Of a DNA stretch of 8,277 nt, positions 1,484-8,277 are shown piece by piece. The notes beneath the pieces were generated by a model. The model was not told where the DNA came from, did not search any database, and worked only from the letters and a program-made list of their open reading frames with translations. Every line of letters begins with the position of its first letter. The stretch's first letter is position 1. Origin of the DNA: a virus. Lineage: Duplodnaviria > Heunggongvirae > Uroviricota > Caudoviricetes. Position numbers and translations under genes: made by a program. The stretch lies in the IMG/VR virus record IMGVR_UViG_2740892421_000006. One strand, given 5' to 3'.

Positions 1484-1518
1484 ATGATGTGCTCACTTGT
1501 TAGAAAGGAGCACATCAT
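1484..1518 (+). promoter_or_regulatory. RBS/start-codon sequestering stem-loop
   Basis: Perfect 11-bp inverted repeat atgatgtgctc (1484-1494) / gagcacatcat (1508-1518) with a 13-nt loop; the 3' arm contains the SD (aaggag 1505-1510) and the AT of the ATG at 1517. Confidence 0.5.
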
Positions 1519-2083
1519 GAGTTGGTTAAAAGAATTATCATTTGTTGACACCACTGGCGCTAAGAAAAATCATTCTTTCTGGAAAGTCAGCGATCCTTCT
1601 GATTTTCTTGTTGGCGCTAATGCTGCTTTTGAATTGCTTAACTTTTATCAACGTTATCCTGAAATGAAACACAGTCCACTCCTGTACAGAATAACAAACG
1701 ATATGAATAGGTCTGGTTTATTATCAAGTGAGTCAGCGAAAGGCTTTTTTAGCAAAATTACGCCACATATATCATTCGATGCTGCAAACGAAATTGATTA
1801 TCTATCCACGAAACCTCAAGAACAATTATCTGTACCACCTGAGAAAAAAGAAAGACGAATTGCCAGCATTGAAAATATATCGAAAGAGCTTCGCACAACA
1901 ACGTTGAGGCTGCTGAACTTTCTTACGCTACTAAATTGGATAGATGATCAAACATTGATTCCATCAACCGATGCGTTGGATAACAGAGTCCTTAGGCTGA
2001 ACAAAAAATCGCAATTTGGTTTTGTGTTCACCAAAAAAGGTGAAGATTTAATCAAAAGAAAATATAGATTATTGAATGATTAA
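1517..2083 (+). CDS. hypothetical protein (188 aa from ATG 1517; ORF track start 1484)
   Basis: Strong SD aaggag 6 nt upstream of ATG 1517; the ORF-track start at 1484 lies inside the hairpin arm and lacks an SD. Stop TAA 2081-2083. No recognisable motifs. Confidence 0.6.
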   Translation: MSWLKELSFVDTTGAKKNHSFWKVSDPSDFLVGANAAFELLNFYQRYPEMKHSPLLYRITNDMNRSGLLSSESAKGFFSKITPHISFDAANEIDYLSTKPQEQLSVPPEKKERRIASIENISKELRTTTLRLLNFLTLLNWIDDQTLIPSTDALDNRVLRLNKKSQFGFVFTKKGEDLIKRKYRLLND

Positions 2084-2090
2084 TAGTCTA

Positions 2091-2138
2091 CATGCAGGTG
2101 TATGAGAGCACCTGCATGTGACATTCGTCACGTTTTTT
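2091..2138 (+). terminator. Rho-independent terminator
   Basis: Perfect 10-bp stem catgcaggtg (2091-2100) / cacctgcatg (2109-2118), 8-nt loop, then small hairpin tgac-attc-gtca and T-run cgttttttg to 2138; sits 8 nt after the stop of the 188-aa gene. Confidence 0.7.
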
Positions 2139-2223: not shown

Positions 2224-2772
2224 ATGGGTCACTTACCTTTTGATAAGAGATTTTTAAGTGCAAAGGAAATAAAGGACTGTGTGGATTTTTATCATAAAAA
2301 AAATAAACAGAAATCTTGCTTAGAAAACCCTAGACACCTAACTTCTTCTCAAAAAGAAGAGCACAAACTAATACAATACAGGTTAAAGACTTCACGTAAA
2401 GATCGTTATGAACACTATATATACGTGAAAGATATTGAAGGCACCAGGACAAATTGCGGAGTAGTCTTTTATCCTTTTGATATAACAAAAATGTTCGCTA
2501 TTATGGACTCCTGTGATGGCGTGGCCCCTGGAAAATTGGAGTTGCATTCAAATTTATACACTTATCCCAGTGCTCGGAAATGGATAAGAGATAGCACGTC
2601 ACCCTATGGTTTTTCTTTTCTTTTCAAAAATCATCTGGCATTAAAAAATTTTATCGAAAAATACAACAACTGCATATCATCAGGTGAATTAAGTTTCGAC
2701 AAAGTCTGTAAAAACATAAAAAGAGATGACCTCTTAAAAGATATTTACAACAGAACTCAGAAGAGCATGTAG
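2224..2772 (+). CDS. hypothetical protein (182 aa)
   Basis: SD ggagg about 6 nt upstream of ATG 2224; AT-rich; stop TAG 2770-2772. No recognisable motifs. Confidence 0.6.
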   Translation: MGHLPFDKRFLSAKEIKDCVDFYHKKNKQKSCLENPRHLTSSQKEEHKLIQYRLKTSRKDRYEHYIYVKDIEGTRTNCGVVFYPFDITKMFAIMDSCDGVAPGKLELHSNLYTYPSARKWIRDSTSPYGFSFLFKNHLALKNFIEKYNNCISSGELSFDKVCKNIKRDDLLKDIYNRTQKSM

Positions 2773-2799: not shown

Positions 2800-3219
2800 A
2801 TGAAAGCAAAAAACTTAATGATTCTAATGCTAACCACGTCACTAATTGGGTGTTCGTCTTCGTCTATATCTATTTCAAAGGCAAAGGATGCACCTCAAAG
2901 CAGAATATTTAAATATCAAACACTACATGAGTCTAGTCTAACAATAGTTCGAGACAAAGGGCTGGTTGGTTCTGCATGTAACGCTTCCATTTTCATCAAT
3001 GGAGAAACGGCTGCAAAGCTAGAACCTGGTGAAAAAGCAACTTTCTACCTTAACGAAGGAGAGTGGATCGTTGGGACATCAATTGAAAGTTCAGGTCTTT
3101 GCGCATTTAACCCCTCCAGGATGGAACGAGAAATAAAGCTAAAGCAGGGCGACTCGAAAACATATCGGGTTTTCACTACCTGGGATGGTACAATGGACAT
3201 ATTGCCAACCACTTTATAA
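2800..3219 (+). CDS. putative lipoprotein (139 aa), predicted outer-membrane sorted
   Basis: N-terminus MKAKNLMILMLTTSLIGCSSSS: hydrophobic h-region plus lipobox L-I-G-C; residue +2 after Cys is Ser (no Lol avoidance Asp). Stop TAA 3217-3219. Confidence 0.65.
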   Translation: MKAKNLMILMLTTSLIGCSSSSISISKAKDAPQSRIFKYQTLHESSLTIVRDKGLVGSACNASIFINGETAAKLEPGEKATFYLNEGEWIVGTSIESSGLCAFNPSRMEREIKLKQGDSKTYRVFTTWDGTMDILPTTL

Positions 3220-3748
3220 TGATATGACGACGAAAGATATCACCTACGGCATACCGGCTGAAGTATGGCCGCGAGACTACGAACATGCTGAACGCACCTT
3301 GCTCTTCTGGCGGAGAGCTAAATTTCCTGTAAGAGTCACTCTCGAAGACGGCCAAGTGTTTTGCATGTACGTTTATGGTCTCATGTCATCTCGTAACAAA
3401 GTTGACCTTTGTCCAACTCCATTTGACAAAGAAAATCGTATAAGGCTCCCACTTGAGCGCATTAGCACAATTGAATCAGGCGTAATTGATGGCATTGATT
3501 ACGATTTCAAAGGGAGACTAACAATACACCCTGACTATGTAGACAACCAGCCATCACGTCGTGACTTTTTTAAGATATGTCGCAAGGCTTATCAAAACGG
3601 CCAATCTATAAGGGTCTACATGGCAGACGGCCGCGAAATTGAGGGAACGTCAGATGGCGTTGATGCCTGCCTAGTCACACTTAAGTTGAACGACGGCAGA
3701 AAAATTCTTGTTTTCTTCGATTGGGTTGAACGAATTTTACCTTTTTGA
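3185..3748 (+). CDS. hypothetical protein with internal tandem repeat, possibly Rof/YaeO-like; start uncertain (3185 or 3224)
   Basis: Long ORF; the alternative ATG at 3224 lies 5 nt after the lipoprotein stop. Two similar segments (VRVTLEDGQ...NRIRLPLERISTIE and VTLKLNDGRKILVFFDWVERI). By memory the first resembles E. coli Rof (LTLELKDGE...SRKNVEY...RELRLDKITS); not verified. Confidence 0.55.
   Translation: MVQWTYCQPLYNDMTTKDITYGIPAEVWPRDYEHAERTLLFWRRAKFPVRVTLEDGQVFCMYVYGLMSSRNKVDLCPTPFDKENRIRLPLERISTIESGVIDGIDYDFKGRLTIHPDYVDNQPSRRDFFKICRKAYQNGQSIRVYMADGREIEGTSDGVDACLVTLKLNDGRKILVFFDWVERILPF
3692..3748. repeat. direct repeat copy 1 (3' end of the 187-aa gene)
   Basis: gacggcagaaaaattcttgttttcttcgatt... 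is ~93% identical to 4058-4114; this copy encodes the C-terminal DGRKILVFFDWVERILPF. Confidence 0.85.
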
Positions 3749-3751
3749 GTT

Positions 3752-4048
3752 ATGAAATCGATACTATTGACATCATTATTTTTAGTTTACTCAATTTCAG
3801 CCAATGCAAAGGATGATATTGCAATTATTAAGTCGCTGATGCATGACGTATGCTCAACGTCTCAGAATATTCCAGTTTGTATGTTTCAACTTTCAGCAGC
3901 AGTAAAACTAGGGATAAACATAGGTAAGACCGCTCAACTATGTGAACAGGTGGAAAATTATGAACCATGTGAATTGAACAACTCTTCATTGCTGTTCGTT
4001 GATGCGCTTTTTGACACCAATCGTAAGGCTGTAGAGTCAGTCCGATAA
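3752..4048 (+). CDS. small secreted 4-Cys protein (98 aa), paralog A
   Basis: Signal peptide MKSILLTSLFLVYSISANA with AxA-type cleavage site; mature part has Cys at 34, 43, 64, 73 (C-x8-C-x20-C-x8-C). Stop TAA 4046-4048. Confidence 0.6.
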   Translation: MKSILLTSLFLVYSISANAKDDIAIIKSLMHDVCSTSQNIPVCMFQLSAAVKLGINIGKTAQLCEQVENYEPCELNNSSLLFVDALFDTNRKAVESVR

Positions 4049-4057
4049 ATGTATGAA

Positions 4058-4114
4058 GACGGCAGAAAAATTCTTGTTTTCTTCGATTTGGTTGACCGAA
4101 TTTTACCGTTTTAG
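4058..4114. repeat. direct repeat copy 2 with 21-codon gene remnant
   Basis: Near-identical to 3692-3748; retains a remnant reading frame ATG 4049 ... TAG 4112-4114 encoding MYEDGRKILVFFDLVDRILPF, i.e. a duplicated 3' end of the 187-aa gene. Confidence 0.85.
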
Positions 4115-4123
4115 GATATTGAT

Positions 4124-4423
4124 ATGAAAACTGTAGCAGCATTCACATTCTTAACTTTCATTTTTAGCTCTTCCGCATTTCCTCAAGAAAATAGCATTGA
4201 ACGAGTGCAACGTGTCTCTACAGAGTTGTGTTCAAAGGCGGAAGACTACGATTTGTGCATGTTAGACCTAAGCATGGCTTTAGGCGCTGCATATCAAGAT
4301 GGACTGATCGTTGCGGGATGCAAGTTGGGACTTGATGAGCCTTCGAAAGACAAATGCGAAAACTCGGAGCGTTTTCAGGAATATATAATAAAAGAAATCA
4401 GGAACTATGCAAAAAAGATGTAA
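4124..4423 (+). CDS. small secreted 4-Cys protein (99 aa), paralog B
   Basis: SD agga 7 nt upstream; signal peptide MKTVAAFTFLTFIFSSSAF; Cys at 36, 45, 66, 78 (C-x8-C-x20-C-x11-C), the same spacing class as paralog A, including the shared C-x8-C-M-x2-L-S motif. Confidence 0.6.
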   Translation: MKTVAAFTFLTFIFSSSAFPQENSIERVQRVSTELCSKAEDYDLCMLDLSMALGAAYQDGLIVAGCKLGLDEPSKDKCENSERFQEYIIKEIRNYAKKM

Positions 4424-4438
4424 ATTCCTATAAGGGTA

Positions 4439-4468
4439 ATAACCGGCTAAGTCCGGTTATTATTTTAC
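4439..4468 (+). terminator. Rho-independent terminator
   Basis: 8-bp stem ataaccgg (4439-4446) / ccggttat (4453-4460), loop ctaagt, then tattttac; 16 nt after the stop of paralog B. Confidence 0.65.
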
Positions 4469-4599
4469 ATGCCATTCGTTTAACACTCATTCAATTCTCC
4501 CCCGTATAAATATATATAAGGTCAAAAGCCGGAATTTATTATTTATTTAGGGAACACCTTCGACGATCTAACTTTTATTTCTAGGACTTTCATCCCTGC

Positions 4600-4647
4600 A
4601 AAAAAACTTAAAAAAACACTTGCAATCTTTTTTCGCGTATCGATAAT
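4600..4647 (+). promoter_or_regulatory. sigma70-like promoter with A-tract UP element
   Basis: A-rich tract aaaaaaacttaaaaaaacac (4600-4619), -35 ttgcaa (4620-4625), 16-bp spacer, -10 gataat (4642-4647); about 60 nt upstream of ATG 4707. Confidence 0.45.
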
Positions 4648-4706
4648 TGGACTCATCGAAAGCGAAATCGCTAACGACAATTAAATTTATACTAAGGATT
4701 GAAATC

Positions 4707-5357
4707 ATGGCTAACATTATCATTTCTAAAAAATCCATCATTGAAGCTGCTGCCATTGTATCCGACGAGCTGCGCGAAAAAGCAGATCTGGCAACTCAAA
4801 CATATAACGAACATTATAAAAATGGTACGCACACAAAAGCAGACAGAGCTAACATGCTTGCAGCGTCTACCAAACTAGCATACTTCACCAACAACGTTTT
4901 AAACGCTGTTAATGATGAGAAATTAGCTGGTGTCTTTTACTACGCGATCAAAGCAAGTAAACAAGCGCCAGAAGTATTTTTCCGTGATGCAATGACTAAT
5001 AGTTATTCACTGGAAAAACTGGTCTATCTGGTTAAATCAATTAAAGCTGGTAAATGCGTTTATTCCATCGCTGATATGTCAGGATCTCGTGTATTTGCTT
5101 TAATCGATATGATTAACGACGAGATCGACACGTTCACCAATGGCGCTGTTTTCGATTTAATGAATGAAGCTAAAAAAGCGTGCGAAATTAAATTGGACGC
5201 TGGCTATACTCAAGCCAACCAGTTGATCAATCTTTGCGAACGTCTTGGACTTGTTGAGAAAGTCAAAGGAATGGGAAGCGCAAAAGCTGGTACGCAGCAA
5301 TATCGCTTTATTAAAAATGATTTCTATAACTATCTGGCTGATGCTTTCAAAGCGTAA
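4707..5357 (+). CDS. hypothetical protein (216 aa)
   Basis: SD aagga (4694-4698) 8 nt before ATG 4707 (MANIIISKK...); the ORF-track start at 4647 lies inside the predicted promoter and has no SD. Stop TAA 5355-5357. No signal peptide and no recognisable motifs. Confidence 0.7.
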   Translation: MANIIISKKSIIEAAAIVSDELREKADLATQTYNEHYKNGTHTKADRANMLAASTKLAYFTNNVLNAVNDEKLAGVFYYAIKASKQAPEVFFRDAMTNSYSLEKLVYLVKSIKAGKCVYSIADMSGSRVFALIDMINDEIDTFTNGAVFDLMNEAKKACEIKLDAGYTQANQLINLCERLGLVEKVKGMGSAKAGTQQYRFIKNDFYNYLADAFKA

Positions 5358-5640: not shown

Positions 5641-5665
5641 AGCGCCCACTATGGGCGCTTTTTTC
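5641..5665 (+). terminator. Rho-independent terminator
   Basis: Stem agcgccca (5641-5648) / tgggcgct (5652-5659), 3-nt loop, then a T6 run; 6 nt after the stop of the 76-aa gene. Confidence 0.75.
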
Positions 5666-5685
5666 GTTTCCAATACTCCCACCAT

Positions 5686-5712
5686 AACGCGCCATCATTG
5701 GCGCGTTTTTTA
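5686..5712 (+). terminator. second (tandem) Rho-independent terminator
   Basis: 8-bp GC-rich stem aacgcgcc (5686-5693) / ggcgcgtt (5700-5707), loop atcatt, then ttttttatt. Confidence 0.7.
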
Positions 5713-6932: not shown

Positions 6933-6936
6933 GTTT

Positions 6937-7869
6937 TCAACTGGAATAAGAATAATCTGTATTGATGAGTAAAGGCGCATCATCCACTAATCCTGACAGA
7001 AACCAGCGAGCAGTCCCGTAAAGTTCAAGGGCGTCAAGATAGCCTTCATGCAGTGCACCAACCCCAAACACATCATTATCAGCCATAGCTACCGCATCTA
7101 CGGCCAGATACTCTATGAGTTCTTCCATGCTTTTTATATTTATATCGTCTAAAATCTCCAGTTTGTTCTCAATCTCATTGAAAGGGATATCCGGCATCGA
7201 ATGCACTATGATTTTTGGCACATCATTCTCATTATTTACCTCCACAATAACAATTCCATACTCTGTAAAAAGAGAACTAAAGAATCTATTAAACTCTAAA
7301 TTAACAAAAGATGCCGAACCATTTAAACGCTCAACATATGGGGAACGAAAAGCTGAATGTAAATTATTTTTTCTACTTTCCTTGCCATATTCTATAATCA
7401 ACTCTTTATTTTTGATCTTCTCGAGTATTCCACCTAGCTCCTCTACAATTAAAGCGCCAGTGTTTTCTCTTTCTTTTGATACTATAGTTGAAAGACTGAT
7501 CAAGGCTTCTGTTATACTGTTATTAGAAACGATCAGATGAAATAGCTCCAGCATAGCCAATCGACCACTATCAGTGAACGTAACAAAGTTTATTGCATCT
7601 ATTTCATTTTTAATCGCAAGAAACTCACATTTATTTTTGATGTTTTCCCGAATTGACATCTCCACACGCTGTCTTATTCTCAACACCTGCTTAAAGTAAG
7701 TATTTTCAAAACATTCGACAGAAAATGTCTTCTTACCATCATTCACAATAGCCAATCTGTATTCACATTCAAGACCATTAAGTTCAAGGCAATCACAGTC
7801 ATATTGGGACCCATCTTTAACTGAAAACAATTCACTAATGTCAATTTGTCCCAAAAATACTGGTTTCAT
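6937..7869 (-). CDS. hypothetical protein (310 aa), AT-rich cassette gene
   Basis: Minus-strand ORF with SD agga upstream of ATG (7867-7869); appears markedly more AT-rich than flanking DNA; bracketed by the two repeat copies. No recognisable catalytic motifs. Confidence 0.65.
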   Translation of the reverse strand: MKPVFLGQIDISELFSVKDGSQYDCDCLELNGLECEYRLAIVNDGKKTFSVECFENTYFKQVLRIRQRVEMSIRENIKNKCEFLAIKNEIDAINFVTFTDSGRLAMLELFHLIVSNNSITEALISLSTIVSKERENTGALIVEELGGILEKIKNKELIIEYGKESRKNNLHSAFRSPYVERLNGSASFVNLEFNRFFSSLFTEYGIVIVEVNNENDVPKIIVHSMPDIPFNEIENKLEILDDINIKSMEELIEYLAVDAVAMADNDVFGVGALHEGYLDALELYGTARWFLSGLVDDAPLLINTDYSYSS

Positions 7870-7949
7870 TTTTAATTCCTCGTTTGTTTTCGATGTGATA
7901 ATTATCGCTGAATGAAATAGGCTAAAAAGAAGATTTGTAAGGCAACTAT

Positions 7950-8001
7950 CTGGAAGTAAGGCAAAGGGTGGTCATTTAAGACCACCAATGCTGGTGGCCT
8001 T
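7950..8001. repeat. cassette-flanking repeat, right copy (tandem hairpins, contains Chi octamer)
   Basis: ctggaagtaagg ... ggtggtc-atttaa-gaccacc (7967-7986) overlapping ccacca-atgc-tggtgg (7982-7997); GCTGGTGG at 7990-7997. Relative to the left copy it lacks an ~18-22-bp internal segment. Confidence 0.8.
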
Positions 8002-8006
8002 AATAA

Positions 8007-8150
8007 TTATCGCCCGATTACGCTAAGGATCTTTTCCTCAACTGATTTGTTGTTGCGACTAAACTGCCTTGCGTATCTGATGACAGAAGAGGCGTTTCGC
8101 TTTCTGACCATCTCGGCTCTTTCCTTCAGGCGTTTCTTGAAATCGCCCAT
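8007..8150 (-). CDS. small basic ORF (47 aa), not in the supplied ORF track
   Basis: Found by manual translation: ATG at 8148-8150 (minus) to TAA at 8007-8009, MGDFKKRLKERAEMVRKRNASSVIRYARQFSRNNKSVEEKILSVIGR; its start is 2 nt after the stop of the upstream partial ORF; SD-like ggtgg upstream. Confidence 0.4.
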   Translation of the reverse strand: MGDFKKRLKERAEMVRKRNASSVIRYARQFSRNNKSVEEKILSVIGR

Positions 8151-8152
8151 AT

Positions 8153-8277
8153 TTACCACCAGGCGCAGAAGGTCAGTCTGTTATTGTGAAAGTCGTGGTT
8201 CCTGATCAGGTCTTCCACAAGCTCTTTCAACTCCCCCACATCATGCCAGTAACCTTCATCGTACTCCTGACTGCCGA
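8153..8277 (-). CDS. 3' end of a gene extending beyond the window (last ~40 codons)
   Basis: Manual translation of the minus strand: ...GSQEYDEGYWHDVGELKELVEDLIRNHDFHNNRLTFCAWW then TAA (8153-8155); open to the window edge. Confidence 0.45.
   Translation of the reverse strand, partial: GSQEYDEGYWHDVGELKELVEDLIRNHDFHNNRLTFCAWW

Follow-up and report, generated by a model that had tools for sequence, protein, structure and literature searches.

A core FljA-family gene and its exchangeable exported-protein neighbours in SSU5/pHCM2-type phage-plasmids

Four consecutive genes (A, B, C and D; Table 1) occupy positions 2800 to 4423 of the Caudoviricetes sequence IMGVR_UViG_2740892421_000006, of which the whole analysed stretch of 8,277 nucleotides (nt) is referred to here as the window. 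One of these genes (B) encodes a cytoplasmic protein and three (A, C and D) encode proteins with export signals. Comparison of the entire window by megablast matched 245 Escherichia coli plasmids (~105-116 kb) and no chromosomes, while the phage matches comprise Cyrano, CMS-2020a and PhiR41_1, with SSU5 and its Klebsiella relatives at greater distance. Furthermore, the window has its gene order in common with pHCM2 of Salmonella Typhi, pMT1 of Yersinia pestis and SSU5, namely two parB genes, a divergent UvsW-like helicase gene, a gene coding for a 92 amino acid (aa) protein, the A-D region and a 216-aa phrog_1513 gene. As such, the window represents a piece of an SSU5/pHCM2-type phage-plasmid of E. 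coli, and the four genes A-D appear to make up one transcription unit within its accessory/regulatory arm, in keeping with the phage-borne nature of the cluster given in an earlier reading of the bare sequence (the original prediction). Phage-plasmids of this type are frequent in clinical E. coli, Klebsiella, Salmonella Typhi, Enterobacter and Y. pestis (pMT1), and the majority of their plasmid-state genes are without known function. We suggest, as the overall explanation that we favour and consider somewhat probable, that the locus combines a core FljA-family regulator, B, produced from a plasmid prophage, with a swappable cassette of envelope proteins.

Gene B, a core gene of the FljA family

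The translated product of B matches the Pfam family PF03614 (Flag1_repress) along the complete profile (1-170/170; Bitscore: 268.4, cut-off: 24; E-value: 3e-80), with each half of the protein matching the corresponding half of the profile, and it also matches phrog_1444 (E-value: 9e-98). It shares 35-36% aa identity with the flagellin-linked FljA encoded on the Senftenberg linear plasmid, and the motifs YG..AE, RDFF and DWV.RI are common to both proteins. Judged by its sequence, B is a full-length member of the FljA ('repressor of phase-1 flagellin') family. As with FljA of Salmonella (fljBA) and of linear plasmids such as pBSSB1, the product is a cytoplasmic, two-domain protein of about 175 aa, with no signal-peptide features at its N-terminus. 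FljA has been described as repressing the translation of fliC mRNA (bioRxiv 10.1101/2025.10.27.684867), and binding of an mRNA leader is presumably also the activity of B.

The original prediction had considered B to be a cytoplasmic protein with a possible Rho-inhibitor-like fold. The structure model of B consists of two tandem Sm/Hfq-like barrels, so that the Sm-like fold class stands; B is, however, not a homolog of Rof, and belongs to the FljA family instead. Among the structural matches of the model, Hfq, other Sm proteins and WYL domains all score above Rof. The Rof/YaeO profile (PF07073), which scores E. coli Rof itself at 99.8 bits, did not match B or either of its halves at E<=10, and comparison of a 23-sequence B alignment with Rof of E. 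coli K-12 by hhalign returned 2.7%, such that only the fold class is retained. While the Sm-like β-barrel is thus common to Rof/YaeO and the modelled B, the latter is twice the size of Rof and has two domains, with no supported sequence relationship between them. B likewise differs from Hfq and the bacterial Sm-like proteins in being a covalent tandem, where Hfq is the subunit of a homohexamer, and it shows no significant sequence similarity to them. From its family and predicted architecture, B is presumed to be an mRNA-binding translational regulator. Searches of the PDB sequence set with A, B, D and a profile of C and D returned nothing usable.

On the Senftenberg linear plasmid a flagellin gene is located directly upstream of fljA, whereas no flagellin gene was observed near B in the window or in ~20 related loci. 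B differs from FljA in its lack of any linkage to flagellin or invertase genes, in its identity of only 35-36%, and in being a phage-plasmid core gene, in non-flagellate hosts included, that is flanked by genes for exported proteins. A fliC leader acting in cis, as a mimic or a target, was sought by blastn-short in the window and five related loci, using the K-12 upstream region and 47 nt of fliC coding sequence as query, and only chance matches of <=12 nt were obtained.

When the plasmids in PLSDB were searched by tblastn, B was found on 835 and the phrog_1513 marker on 815 of them, with the following counts for B and the marker, respectively: Klebsiella, 345 and 346; Escherichia, 229 and 217; Enterobacter, 92 and 91; and Yersinia, 62 and 62. 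B is furthermore present in all of the 54 IMG/VR viral contigs with enough flanking sequence (54/54), while in the phage collection it is restricted to SSU5-like genomes. Between two Klebsiella plasmid lineages the proportion of non-synonymous differences (pN) in B is 0.18 with the synonymous proportion (pS) saturated, and within one lineage the ratio of non-synonymous to synonymous substitution rates (dN/dS) is 0.06. SSU5-type phage-plasmids have B as a core gene, whether or not the host is flagellated. Flagella are lacking in K. pneumoniae, and Y. pestis is a non-motile species, yet B is intact in both, which argues that fliC repression is not the function conserved in B and that the conserved target must be other than fliC, although fliC is plausible as a target in E. 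coli.

This distribution bears on the classical role of FljA, in which B would repress the translation of host fliC, giving lysogens with fewer or no flagella, and in which A, C and D would be unrelated morons. The benefit could lie in energy saving, in immune evasion or in resistance to flagellotropic phages. Such a role is consistent with the full-length family match and the motifs common to B and the flagellin-linked FljA, with the mechanism of FljA, reportedly established by Aldridge (2006) and by Yamamoto & Kutsukake (2006), and with the fact that most of the host genera are flagellated (Escherichia, Salmonella, Enterobacter, Citrobacter and Cronobacter). The orthologue of B is moreover upregulated under macrophage/DMEM conditions in E. 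coli LF82 (PMC9928086). B is, however, equally universal in the non-flagellate Klebsiella (345/346 marker-positive) and Y. pestis (62/62), where it is under purifying selection. It also lacks a linked flagellin gene, unlike every characterised fljA, has a low identity to the flagellin-linked protein, and is carried by S. Typhi CT18 (pHCM2) and E. coli LF82 (Cyrano), both of which are flagellated strains. We therefore consider the classical role possible, yet on the whole doubtful, as the explanation of this locus.

Exported proteins and the slots around B

The four co-directional genes are separated by gaps of 4 (A-B), 3 (B-C) and 75 nt (C-D), with the start codon of C lying directly after the 3-nt gap that follows the stop codon of B. 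An intrinsic terminator follows D, with a 14-bp stem (GGUAAUAACCGG-CUAAGU-CCGGUUAUUAUU; 4433-4466) and UUA directly after it. The terminator region, comprising hairpin and U-run, folds at -15.3 kcal/mol (z-score: -2.95), and a simple terminator scanner did not flag this hairpin. The terminator is kept directly 3′ of B, C or D in the 11 elements that were compared, while in the distant contig L022 a different stem-forming sequence, CCGAC/GTCGG, occupies the site as judged by eye, with two of the pairs broken in the MAFFT alignment.

All of the four originally predicted genes are real, and the coordinates given for A, C and D were exact. The start of B required correction: its open reading frame (ORF) extends over 3185-3748, and the true start is the ATG at 3224 rather than 3185, as annotated by the Prokaryotic Genome Annotation Pipeline (PGAP) in a 98.8%-identical plasmid and as indicated by the N-termini of 22 homologues. 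The ORFs A to D are genuine genes, on all of which purifying selection acts. In A, B and C, pN falls far short of pS, and dN/dS values (computed with Biopython) are 0.02-0.17 where unsaturated, while D has a dN/dS of 0.19-0.24 in comparison to Cronobacter. The evidence of selection matters because PGAP omits A and C even where their ORFs are intact, both genes being unannotated by RefSeq/PGAP in the 98.8%-identical plasmid NZ_CP075739.1. Similarly, no gene is listed over C in pHCM2 in the PLSDB gene table. Two conserved genes, A and C, can thus be flagged as missing from the RefSeq annotation of near-identical plasmids.

Table 1. Positions of the features discussed in the window and in related sequences.
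Feature	Sequence	Position	Strand	Description
Gene A	Window	2800..3219	+	139-aa lipoprotein precursor; unannotated site
Gene B	Window	3224..3748	+	174-aa cytoplasmic FljA-family protein
Gene C	Window	3752..4048	+	98-aa secreted 4-Cys protein; unannotated site
B 3′-end remnant/mini-ORF	Window	4049..4114	+	Recombination scar
Gene D	Window	4124..4423	+	99-aa secreted 4-Cys protein, diverged homologue of C
Intrinsic terminator	Window	4433..4470	+	Closes the A-D unit
Direct repeat	Window	3692-3753, 4058-4119		3′ end of B, duplicated before D
Spacer	Window	4424-4712		From D to the phrog_1513 gene
TATAAGG(G/T)	Window	4429, 4515		Two occurrences in the spacer
ATTTATTTAGGGAACACCTTCGA	Window	4539-4561		Conserved block in the spacer
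TTGCAA-16-GATAAT	Window	4620-4647		Sigma-70-like promoter
Rfam matches	Window	5642-5711	+	isrK and ncS025, just after the phrog_1585 gene
Minus-strand ORF	Window	6937-7869	-	310 aa
Variable slot	Window	6933-8277		Beyond the end of alignment to the closest plasmids
Two-gene cassette	Window	1484-2083, 2224-2772		phrog_13473 and phrog_31250, function unknown
Terminator-like hairpin	Window	2116-2133		Between the phrog_13473 and phrog_31250 genes
A/C sites	L002	5800-6219, 6752-7048		Unannotated
A/C site	L013	4001-4309		Unannotated
CYRAN_114	L001	6371-6892		Orthologue of B
CYRAN_115	L001	5468-6268		Adjacent lipoprotein
A homologue	L014	3998-4420		N15-like Klebsiella phage-plasmid
T4 gene vs	L024	5387-5734		Signal-peptide-like N-terminus

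The export signals of the four products were judged by rule-based sequence checks, by which the original claim that three of them are targeted to the envelope is upheld, with a lipobox in A and Sec signals in C and D. The N-terminus of A (MKAKN) has two Lys in its first five residues and is followed by the core LMILMLTTSLI (Kyte-Doolittle: 2.35) and a lipobox, L-I-G-C18, with Ser rather than Asp at +2, the whole reading MKAKN-LMILMLTTSLI-G-C18-SS. With Ser at this position, A is of the outer-membrane type according to the +2 rule. The lipobox Cys is invariant in nine homologues as well as in pHCM2, pMT1 and SSU5, the mature protein contains two conserved Cys (60 and 101), and the structure model is a generic β-sandwich. 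A matches phrog_890 ('lipoprotein'), while its match to DUF2846 (PF11008) is weak (Bitscore: 14.2, gathering score: 34.3; E-value: 0.049), with similar weak matches for three homologues. Genes of the A family are also found without B, in other plasmid and phage contexts. A homologue with 47% identity is encoded on a 54-kb N15-like Klebsiella phage-plasmid, between genes for a C40 peptidase (K-like) and tail assembly (I-like), and a J-like host-recognition gene is located just downstream. A slot in a tail module beside a host-recognition gene is typical of receptor-blocking lipoproteins. On a Xanthomonas plasmid, an A-family gene adjoins a restriction enzyme gene.

The product of C has a Lys at position 2, the core LLTSLFLVYSI and a signal cleavage site predicted between ANA and KDD, leaving a mature protein of ~79 aa with the Cys pattern C-x8-C-x20-C-x8-C. 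D likewise has Lys at position 2, followed by the core VAAFTFLTFIF, and its presumed cleavage site here reads AFP before QEN (Pro at -1, S20P), as opposed to AFS before QEN in the Klebsiella and Cronobacter homologues, with alternative sites between SSS and AFP and between SSA and FPQ. Homologues with as little as 37-50% identity retain both the export signals and the Cys pattern. C and D had been predicted to be paralogous, and by sequence comparison they are true homologues: they match each other by BLASTP (E-value: 3e-5), the C family matches the D family by hhalign (93.1%; E-value: 3e-7), and four Cys and one Gly are invariant across 10 sequences of three subtypes (C-x8-C-x20-C-x8..12-C). 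An alignment of C and D only with MAFFT misplaces the third and fourth Cys, which was corrected by the addition of eight further sequences. Both proteins might be helical, as far as we can infer.

The C protein (phrog_9536; E-value: 3.5e-27) is encoded on 246 plasmids, always just after B (tblastn), with a dN/dS of ~0.1 among orthologues. D (phrog_27673; E-value: 4e-62) is found on 151 plasmids, of which 138 are from Klebsiella, and represents the 'Klebsiella-type' allele for the slot that follows B, with D standing directly behind B in both Klebsiella and Cronobacter. A phmmer search with D against 1.84e9 representatives yielded 2 genuine clusters and two repetitive eukaryote-like false positives, and both C and D have almost no relatives beyond the SSU5-type elements. 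In comparison to the Klebsiella allele, D has a dN/dS of 0.84, which, together with S20P, is compatible with a relaxed constraint on a redundant copy, the counts being small. The same Pro-20 allele of D occurs directly after B in the IMG/VR contig L087. D further has a precomputed Pfam match, flagged as 'weak', to the T4 Vs/ValRS_modifier family (PF26829), and its residues 1-61 match phrog_1256 (T4 Vs; E-value: 1.5e-4), with C scoring far lower, while the 4-Cys family as a whole matches T4 Vs at 30% by hhalign (E-value: 5.5e-4). The T4 protein, named 'valyl-tRNA synthetase modifier', also has an N-terminal signal-like sequence, four Cys and a mature part of ~95 aa, but its Cys spacing is its own (C-x5-C ... 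C-x10-C), and its named function concerns a cytoplasmic enzyme and tells nothing useful about C and D. In T4 itself, the signal-peptide-like sequence MTKILVLCIGLISFSASASA and four Cys encoded by gene vs are odd for the partner of a cytoplasmic enzyme.

The genes adjoining B vary between elements. An exported protein is encoded directly upstream of B in 48/54 viral contigs and belongs to one of four families, namely the A family (30/54), a 197-199-aa secreted protein with a stop codon overlapping the start of B (8/54), a large lipoprotein of 259-266 aa (5/54) and a 118-aa secreted protein (5/54). Downstream of B, a 4-Cys protein of any type is encoded in 24/54 contigs, comprising the C type (17/54), the D type (5/54) and a third type (2/54), while C and D together were found in none of the 54. 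The order A-B-C is observed in pHCM2, many E. coli plasmids and Citrobacter, and A-B in SSU5 and pMT1. In Klebsiella, an inverted homologue of A (hhalign: 98.8%) precedes B-D or B-C, although in one Klebsiella lineage the 118-aa secreted protein stands before B. Inverted lipoproteins of 259 and 266 aa precede B-D in Cronobacter and B in Cyrano, respectively, and a deeply divergent lineage, with only 38% identity in B, carries B with the third type of 4-Cys protein. As this clustering recurs across lineages with unrelated exported families, the association of exported genes with B is not due to chance. The 196-199-aa Sec-signal family (e.g. MKMKISLLLACICLPAFSANA followed by LSD) was observed just upstream of B in contigs L048, L061, L068, L072, L074, L081 and L091.

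The tandem of C and D seen in the window is rare and occurs in a handful of E. coli plasmids. It is accompanied by a direct repeat of 62 nt (90% identical), by which the 3′ end of B is duplicated before D. In the second copy, the 5′ part is identical to the tail of the B gene of the window itself, while the 3′ part is the junction of B stop and D start of the Klebsiella/Cronobacter type, and matches to Klebsiella phages start at 4082. The scar can be read as a 21-codon mini-ORF (MYEDGRKILVFFDLVDRILPF, then a stop), the ATG of which overlaps the stop of C (TAAATG) and the TAG of which lies 9 nt ahead of the ATG of D. Putative parental arrangements exist in L087, where an E. coli-type B is followed by this D allele, and in L091, where B is followed by this C allele. 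The chimeric repeat copy and the existence of putative parents indicate that the tandem is recombinant. A crossover of an A-B-C element with a B-D element would have stacked D behind C.

Such exchange raises the alternative that the locus is an insertion hot spot only, in which B is a core regulator and its flanks tolerate insertions, with selection simply favouring secreted 'moron' cargo at this site and the exported proteins functionally unrelated to B and to one another. At least four unrelated upstream families in two orientations, an optional downstream gene, the presence of an insertion sequence and of truncated copies, the recombination scar, and the A-family genes found elsewhere without B all point in this direction. 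Both slots, however, carry exclusively exported cargo (48/54 and 24/54) and not the toxin, defence or metabolic genes found elsewhere in these elements, the partners are tied to B by overlapping start and stop codons or by gaps of 3-4 nt, and the pairing of B with a 4-Cys protein persists down to 38% identity of B. A mere hot spot accordingly appears unlikely to us, although as a tentative explanation it deserves consideration.

Expression and possible function of the locus

Expression of the region can be followed in log2 values from RNA sequencing (RNA-seq) of an E. coli LF82 lysogen carrying Cyrano (PMC9928086, S1 Table). CYRAN_114, which is 86% identical to B, has a value of 4.2 in lysogeny broth (LB) and of 6.9-8.1 in Dulbecco's modified Eagle medium (DMEM) and macrophages, while the adjacent lipoprotein gene, CYRAN_115, has values of 4.7-5.0 and 7.9-9.4, respectively, both genes being up by ~8- to 20-fold from overnight LB to DMEM/macrophages (PMC9928086). 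The Cyrano structural genes are at ~3-4 in most conditions, with the capsid gene reaching 7.4-7.8 at 6 h in macrophages, the repressor CYRAN_45 ranges from 6.4 to 10.3 across conditions, and the phrog_1513 gene next door is low until 6 h in macrophages (PMC9928086). In LB, the CYRAN_114/115 region falls under the five-fold cut-off by which the authors defined a 'moron' (PMC9928086). On the basis of this lysogen, the B region is expressed from the resident prophage, and the host takeover envisaged in the original prediction does not fit, as the lysogen has transcript levels of the B orthologue and the neighbouring lipoprotein gene that are well above those of the structural genes (PMC9928086).

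In the reading that we favour, with B as the core regulator beside a swappable cassette, B would be made by the resident plasmid prophage as an mRNA-binding translational repressor, and would block translation by binding the leader of one or more target mRNAs. The universal maintenance of B in non-flagellate Klebsiella and Y. pestis implies a conserved target other than fliC, which may lie among the phage-plasmid's own mRNAs or be the mRNA for a host function shared by all Enterobacterales. The slots around B would be prone to recombination, the upstream slot harboring a gene for an exported protein (here A) and the downstream slot a gene, often translationally coupled, for a small disulfide-bonded periplasmic protein (here the alleles C and D). 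In the envelope of the lysogen, A and C/D would then serve as lysogenic-conversion factors, the most plausible role being its protection from attack by further phages. That A, C and D function in exclusion would be plausible by analogy to Llp of T5, Cor of phi80/N15 and Spackle and Imm of T4; A, C and D too are small phage-encoded lipoproteins or periplasmic proteins, plausibly made in the lysogen, and the one hint from gene context is the A homologue within the tail-gene module of the N15-like phage-plasmid. No sequence or profile similarity of A, C and D to these exclusion proteins was nevertheless detected, the searches having returned no match to Llp or Spackle, and mature Llp is about half as large as A.

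Several observations weigh against this reading. The role of A, C and D in the envelope is one that we purely infer; none of the four products has a match in PADLOC or NCBIfam, such that these searches failed to connect A, C and D to known defence or exclusion families, and A, C and D have none in the PDB sequence set. With regard to targets of B, the leader of E. coli fliC has no counterpart in the window or related loci, and RNAalifold analysis of the 290-nt spacer after the unit supports only the terminator and no other conserved RNA structure. The expression data derive from a relative, Cyrano, in which the partner genes belong to different families, and the lipoprotein gene of Cyrano is divergently transcribed, so that the genes do not always form one operon. 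The exported gene upstream of B is absent in 6/54 contigs and the 4-Cys gene in 30/54, and as the partners are thus not obligatory, their adjacency could stem from an insertion hot spot instead of a functional link. Lastly, many of the elements counted in IMG/VR and PLSDB are nearly identical to one another.

A further and rather improbable proposal is that B would be the conserved post-transcriptional controller of a modular 'envelope cassette' in SSU5-type phage-plasmids, tuning the translation of the exported proteins themselves or of a host surface component that they replace, whereby the envelope of the lysogen would be remodelled by these proteins. The flagellar repressor FljA would then represent a domesticated offshoot of this phage-plasmid regulator, and not the other way round. 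The exclusion or host-takeover module of the original prediction, with B inhibiting Rho in the manner of Rof and the lipoprotein and periplasmic proteins blocking receptors or DNA entry, is very improbable: three exported products and the A homologue in the tail-gene module next to a host-recognition gene on the N15-like phage-plasmid agree with it, but B is a two-domain FljA-family protein with no ROF Pfam match, a 2.7% hhalign result and structural matches to Hfq, Sm and WYL above Rof, A, C and D have no similarity to entries of PADLOC or the PDB set and returned no match to Llp or Spackle, and the orthologue is transcribed in the lysogen and not as an early lytic gene.

The sequences concerned have been publicly available from the time of pMT1 and pHCM2 onwards, and existing annotations call B a 'repressor of phase-1 flagellin' or a 'transcriptional regulator'. 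The description of the cluster as uncharacterised is borne out by a literature search, in which no paper linking fljA with SSU5, pHCM2 or phage-plasmids was found. The core status of B regardless of flagellation, its tandem-Sm architecture and its constant yet swappable exported partners appear to be new with respect to the searchable literature. If a core regulator of these elements binds RNA and was taken over from flagellar phase variation, or passed on to it, this would provide a testable handle on the reprogramming of hosts by such elements, and the small size of B makes it possible to pull down its RNA partners. If it is true that the swappable partners confer exclusion, they would be of relevance to phage therapy against Klebsiella and E. 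coli.

The downstream spacer and other variable regions

The spacer between D and the phrog_1513 gene contains non-coding blocks that are better conserved than the flanking proteins. TATAAGG(G/T) occurs in it twice, and ATTTATTTAGGGAACACCTTCGA, which is single-copy per contig in 81 viral contigs, is invariant but for a degenerate position and a single substitution, including in an element with only 38% identity in B. The spacer also contains TTTATTTCTAAGACTTT and a sigma-70-like promoter, with the conserved CATCGAAAGCGAAC just downstream. The conserved blocks look like candidate protein- or RNA-binding sites. Three sub-threshold matches to Rfam families were found in the window at E<=1, none of them in the A-D cluster, and among these the matches to isrK (Bitscore: 19.9; E-value: 0.75) and ncS025 are probably due to chance.

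Two further regions of the window differ between related elements. At its 3′ end, the closest plasmids (97-99% identical) align only to ~6932, and the remainder represents another variable slot. The minus-strand ORF in this slot has no Pfam or PADLOC match, and the GC skew is strongly negative there. An inserted cassette of two genes (phrog_13473 and phrog_31250) separates A from the 92-aa gene, with a terminator-like hairpin between its genes. This cassette is absent from pHCM2, pMT1 and SSU5, while homologues are present in some Klebsiella and E. coli elements.

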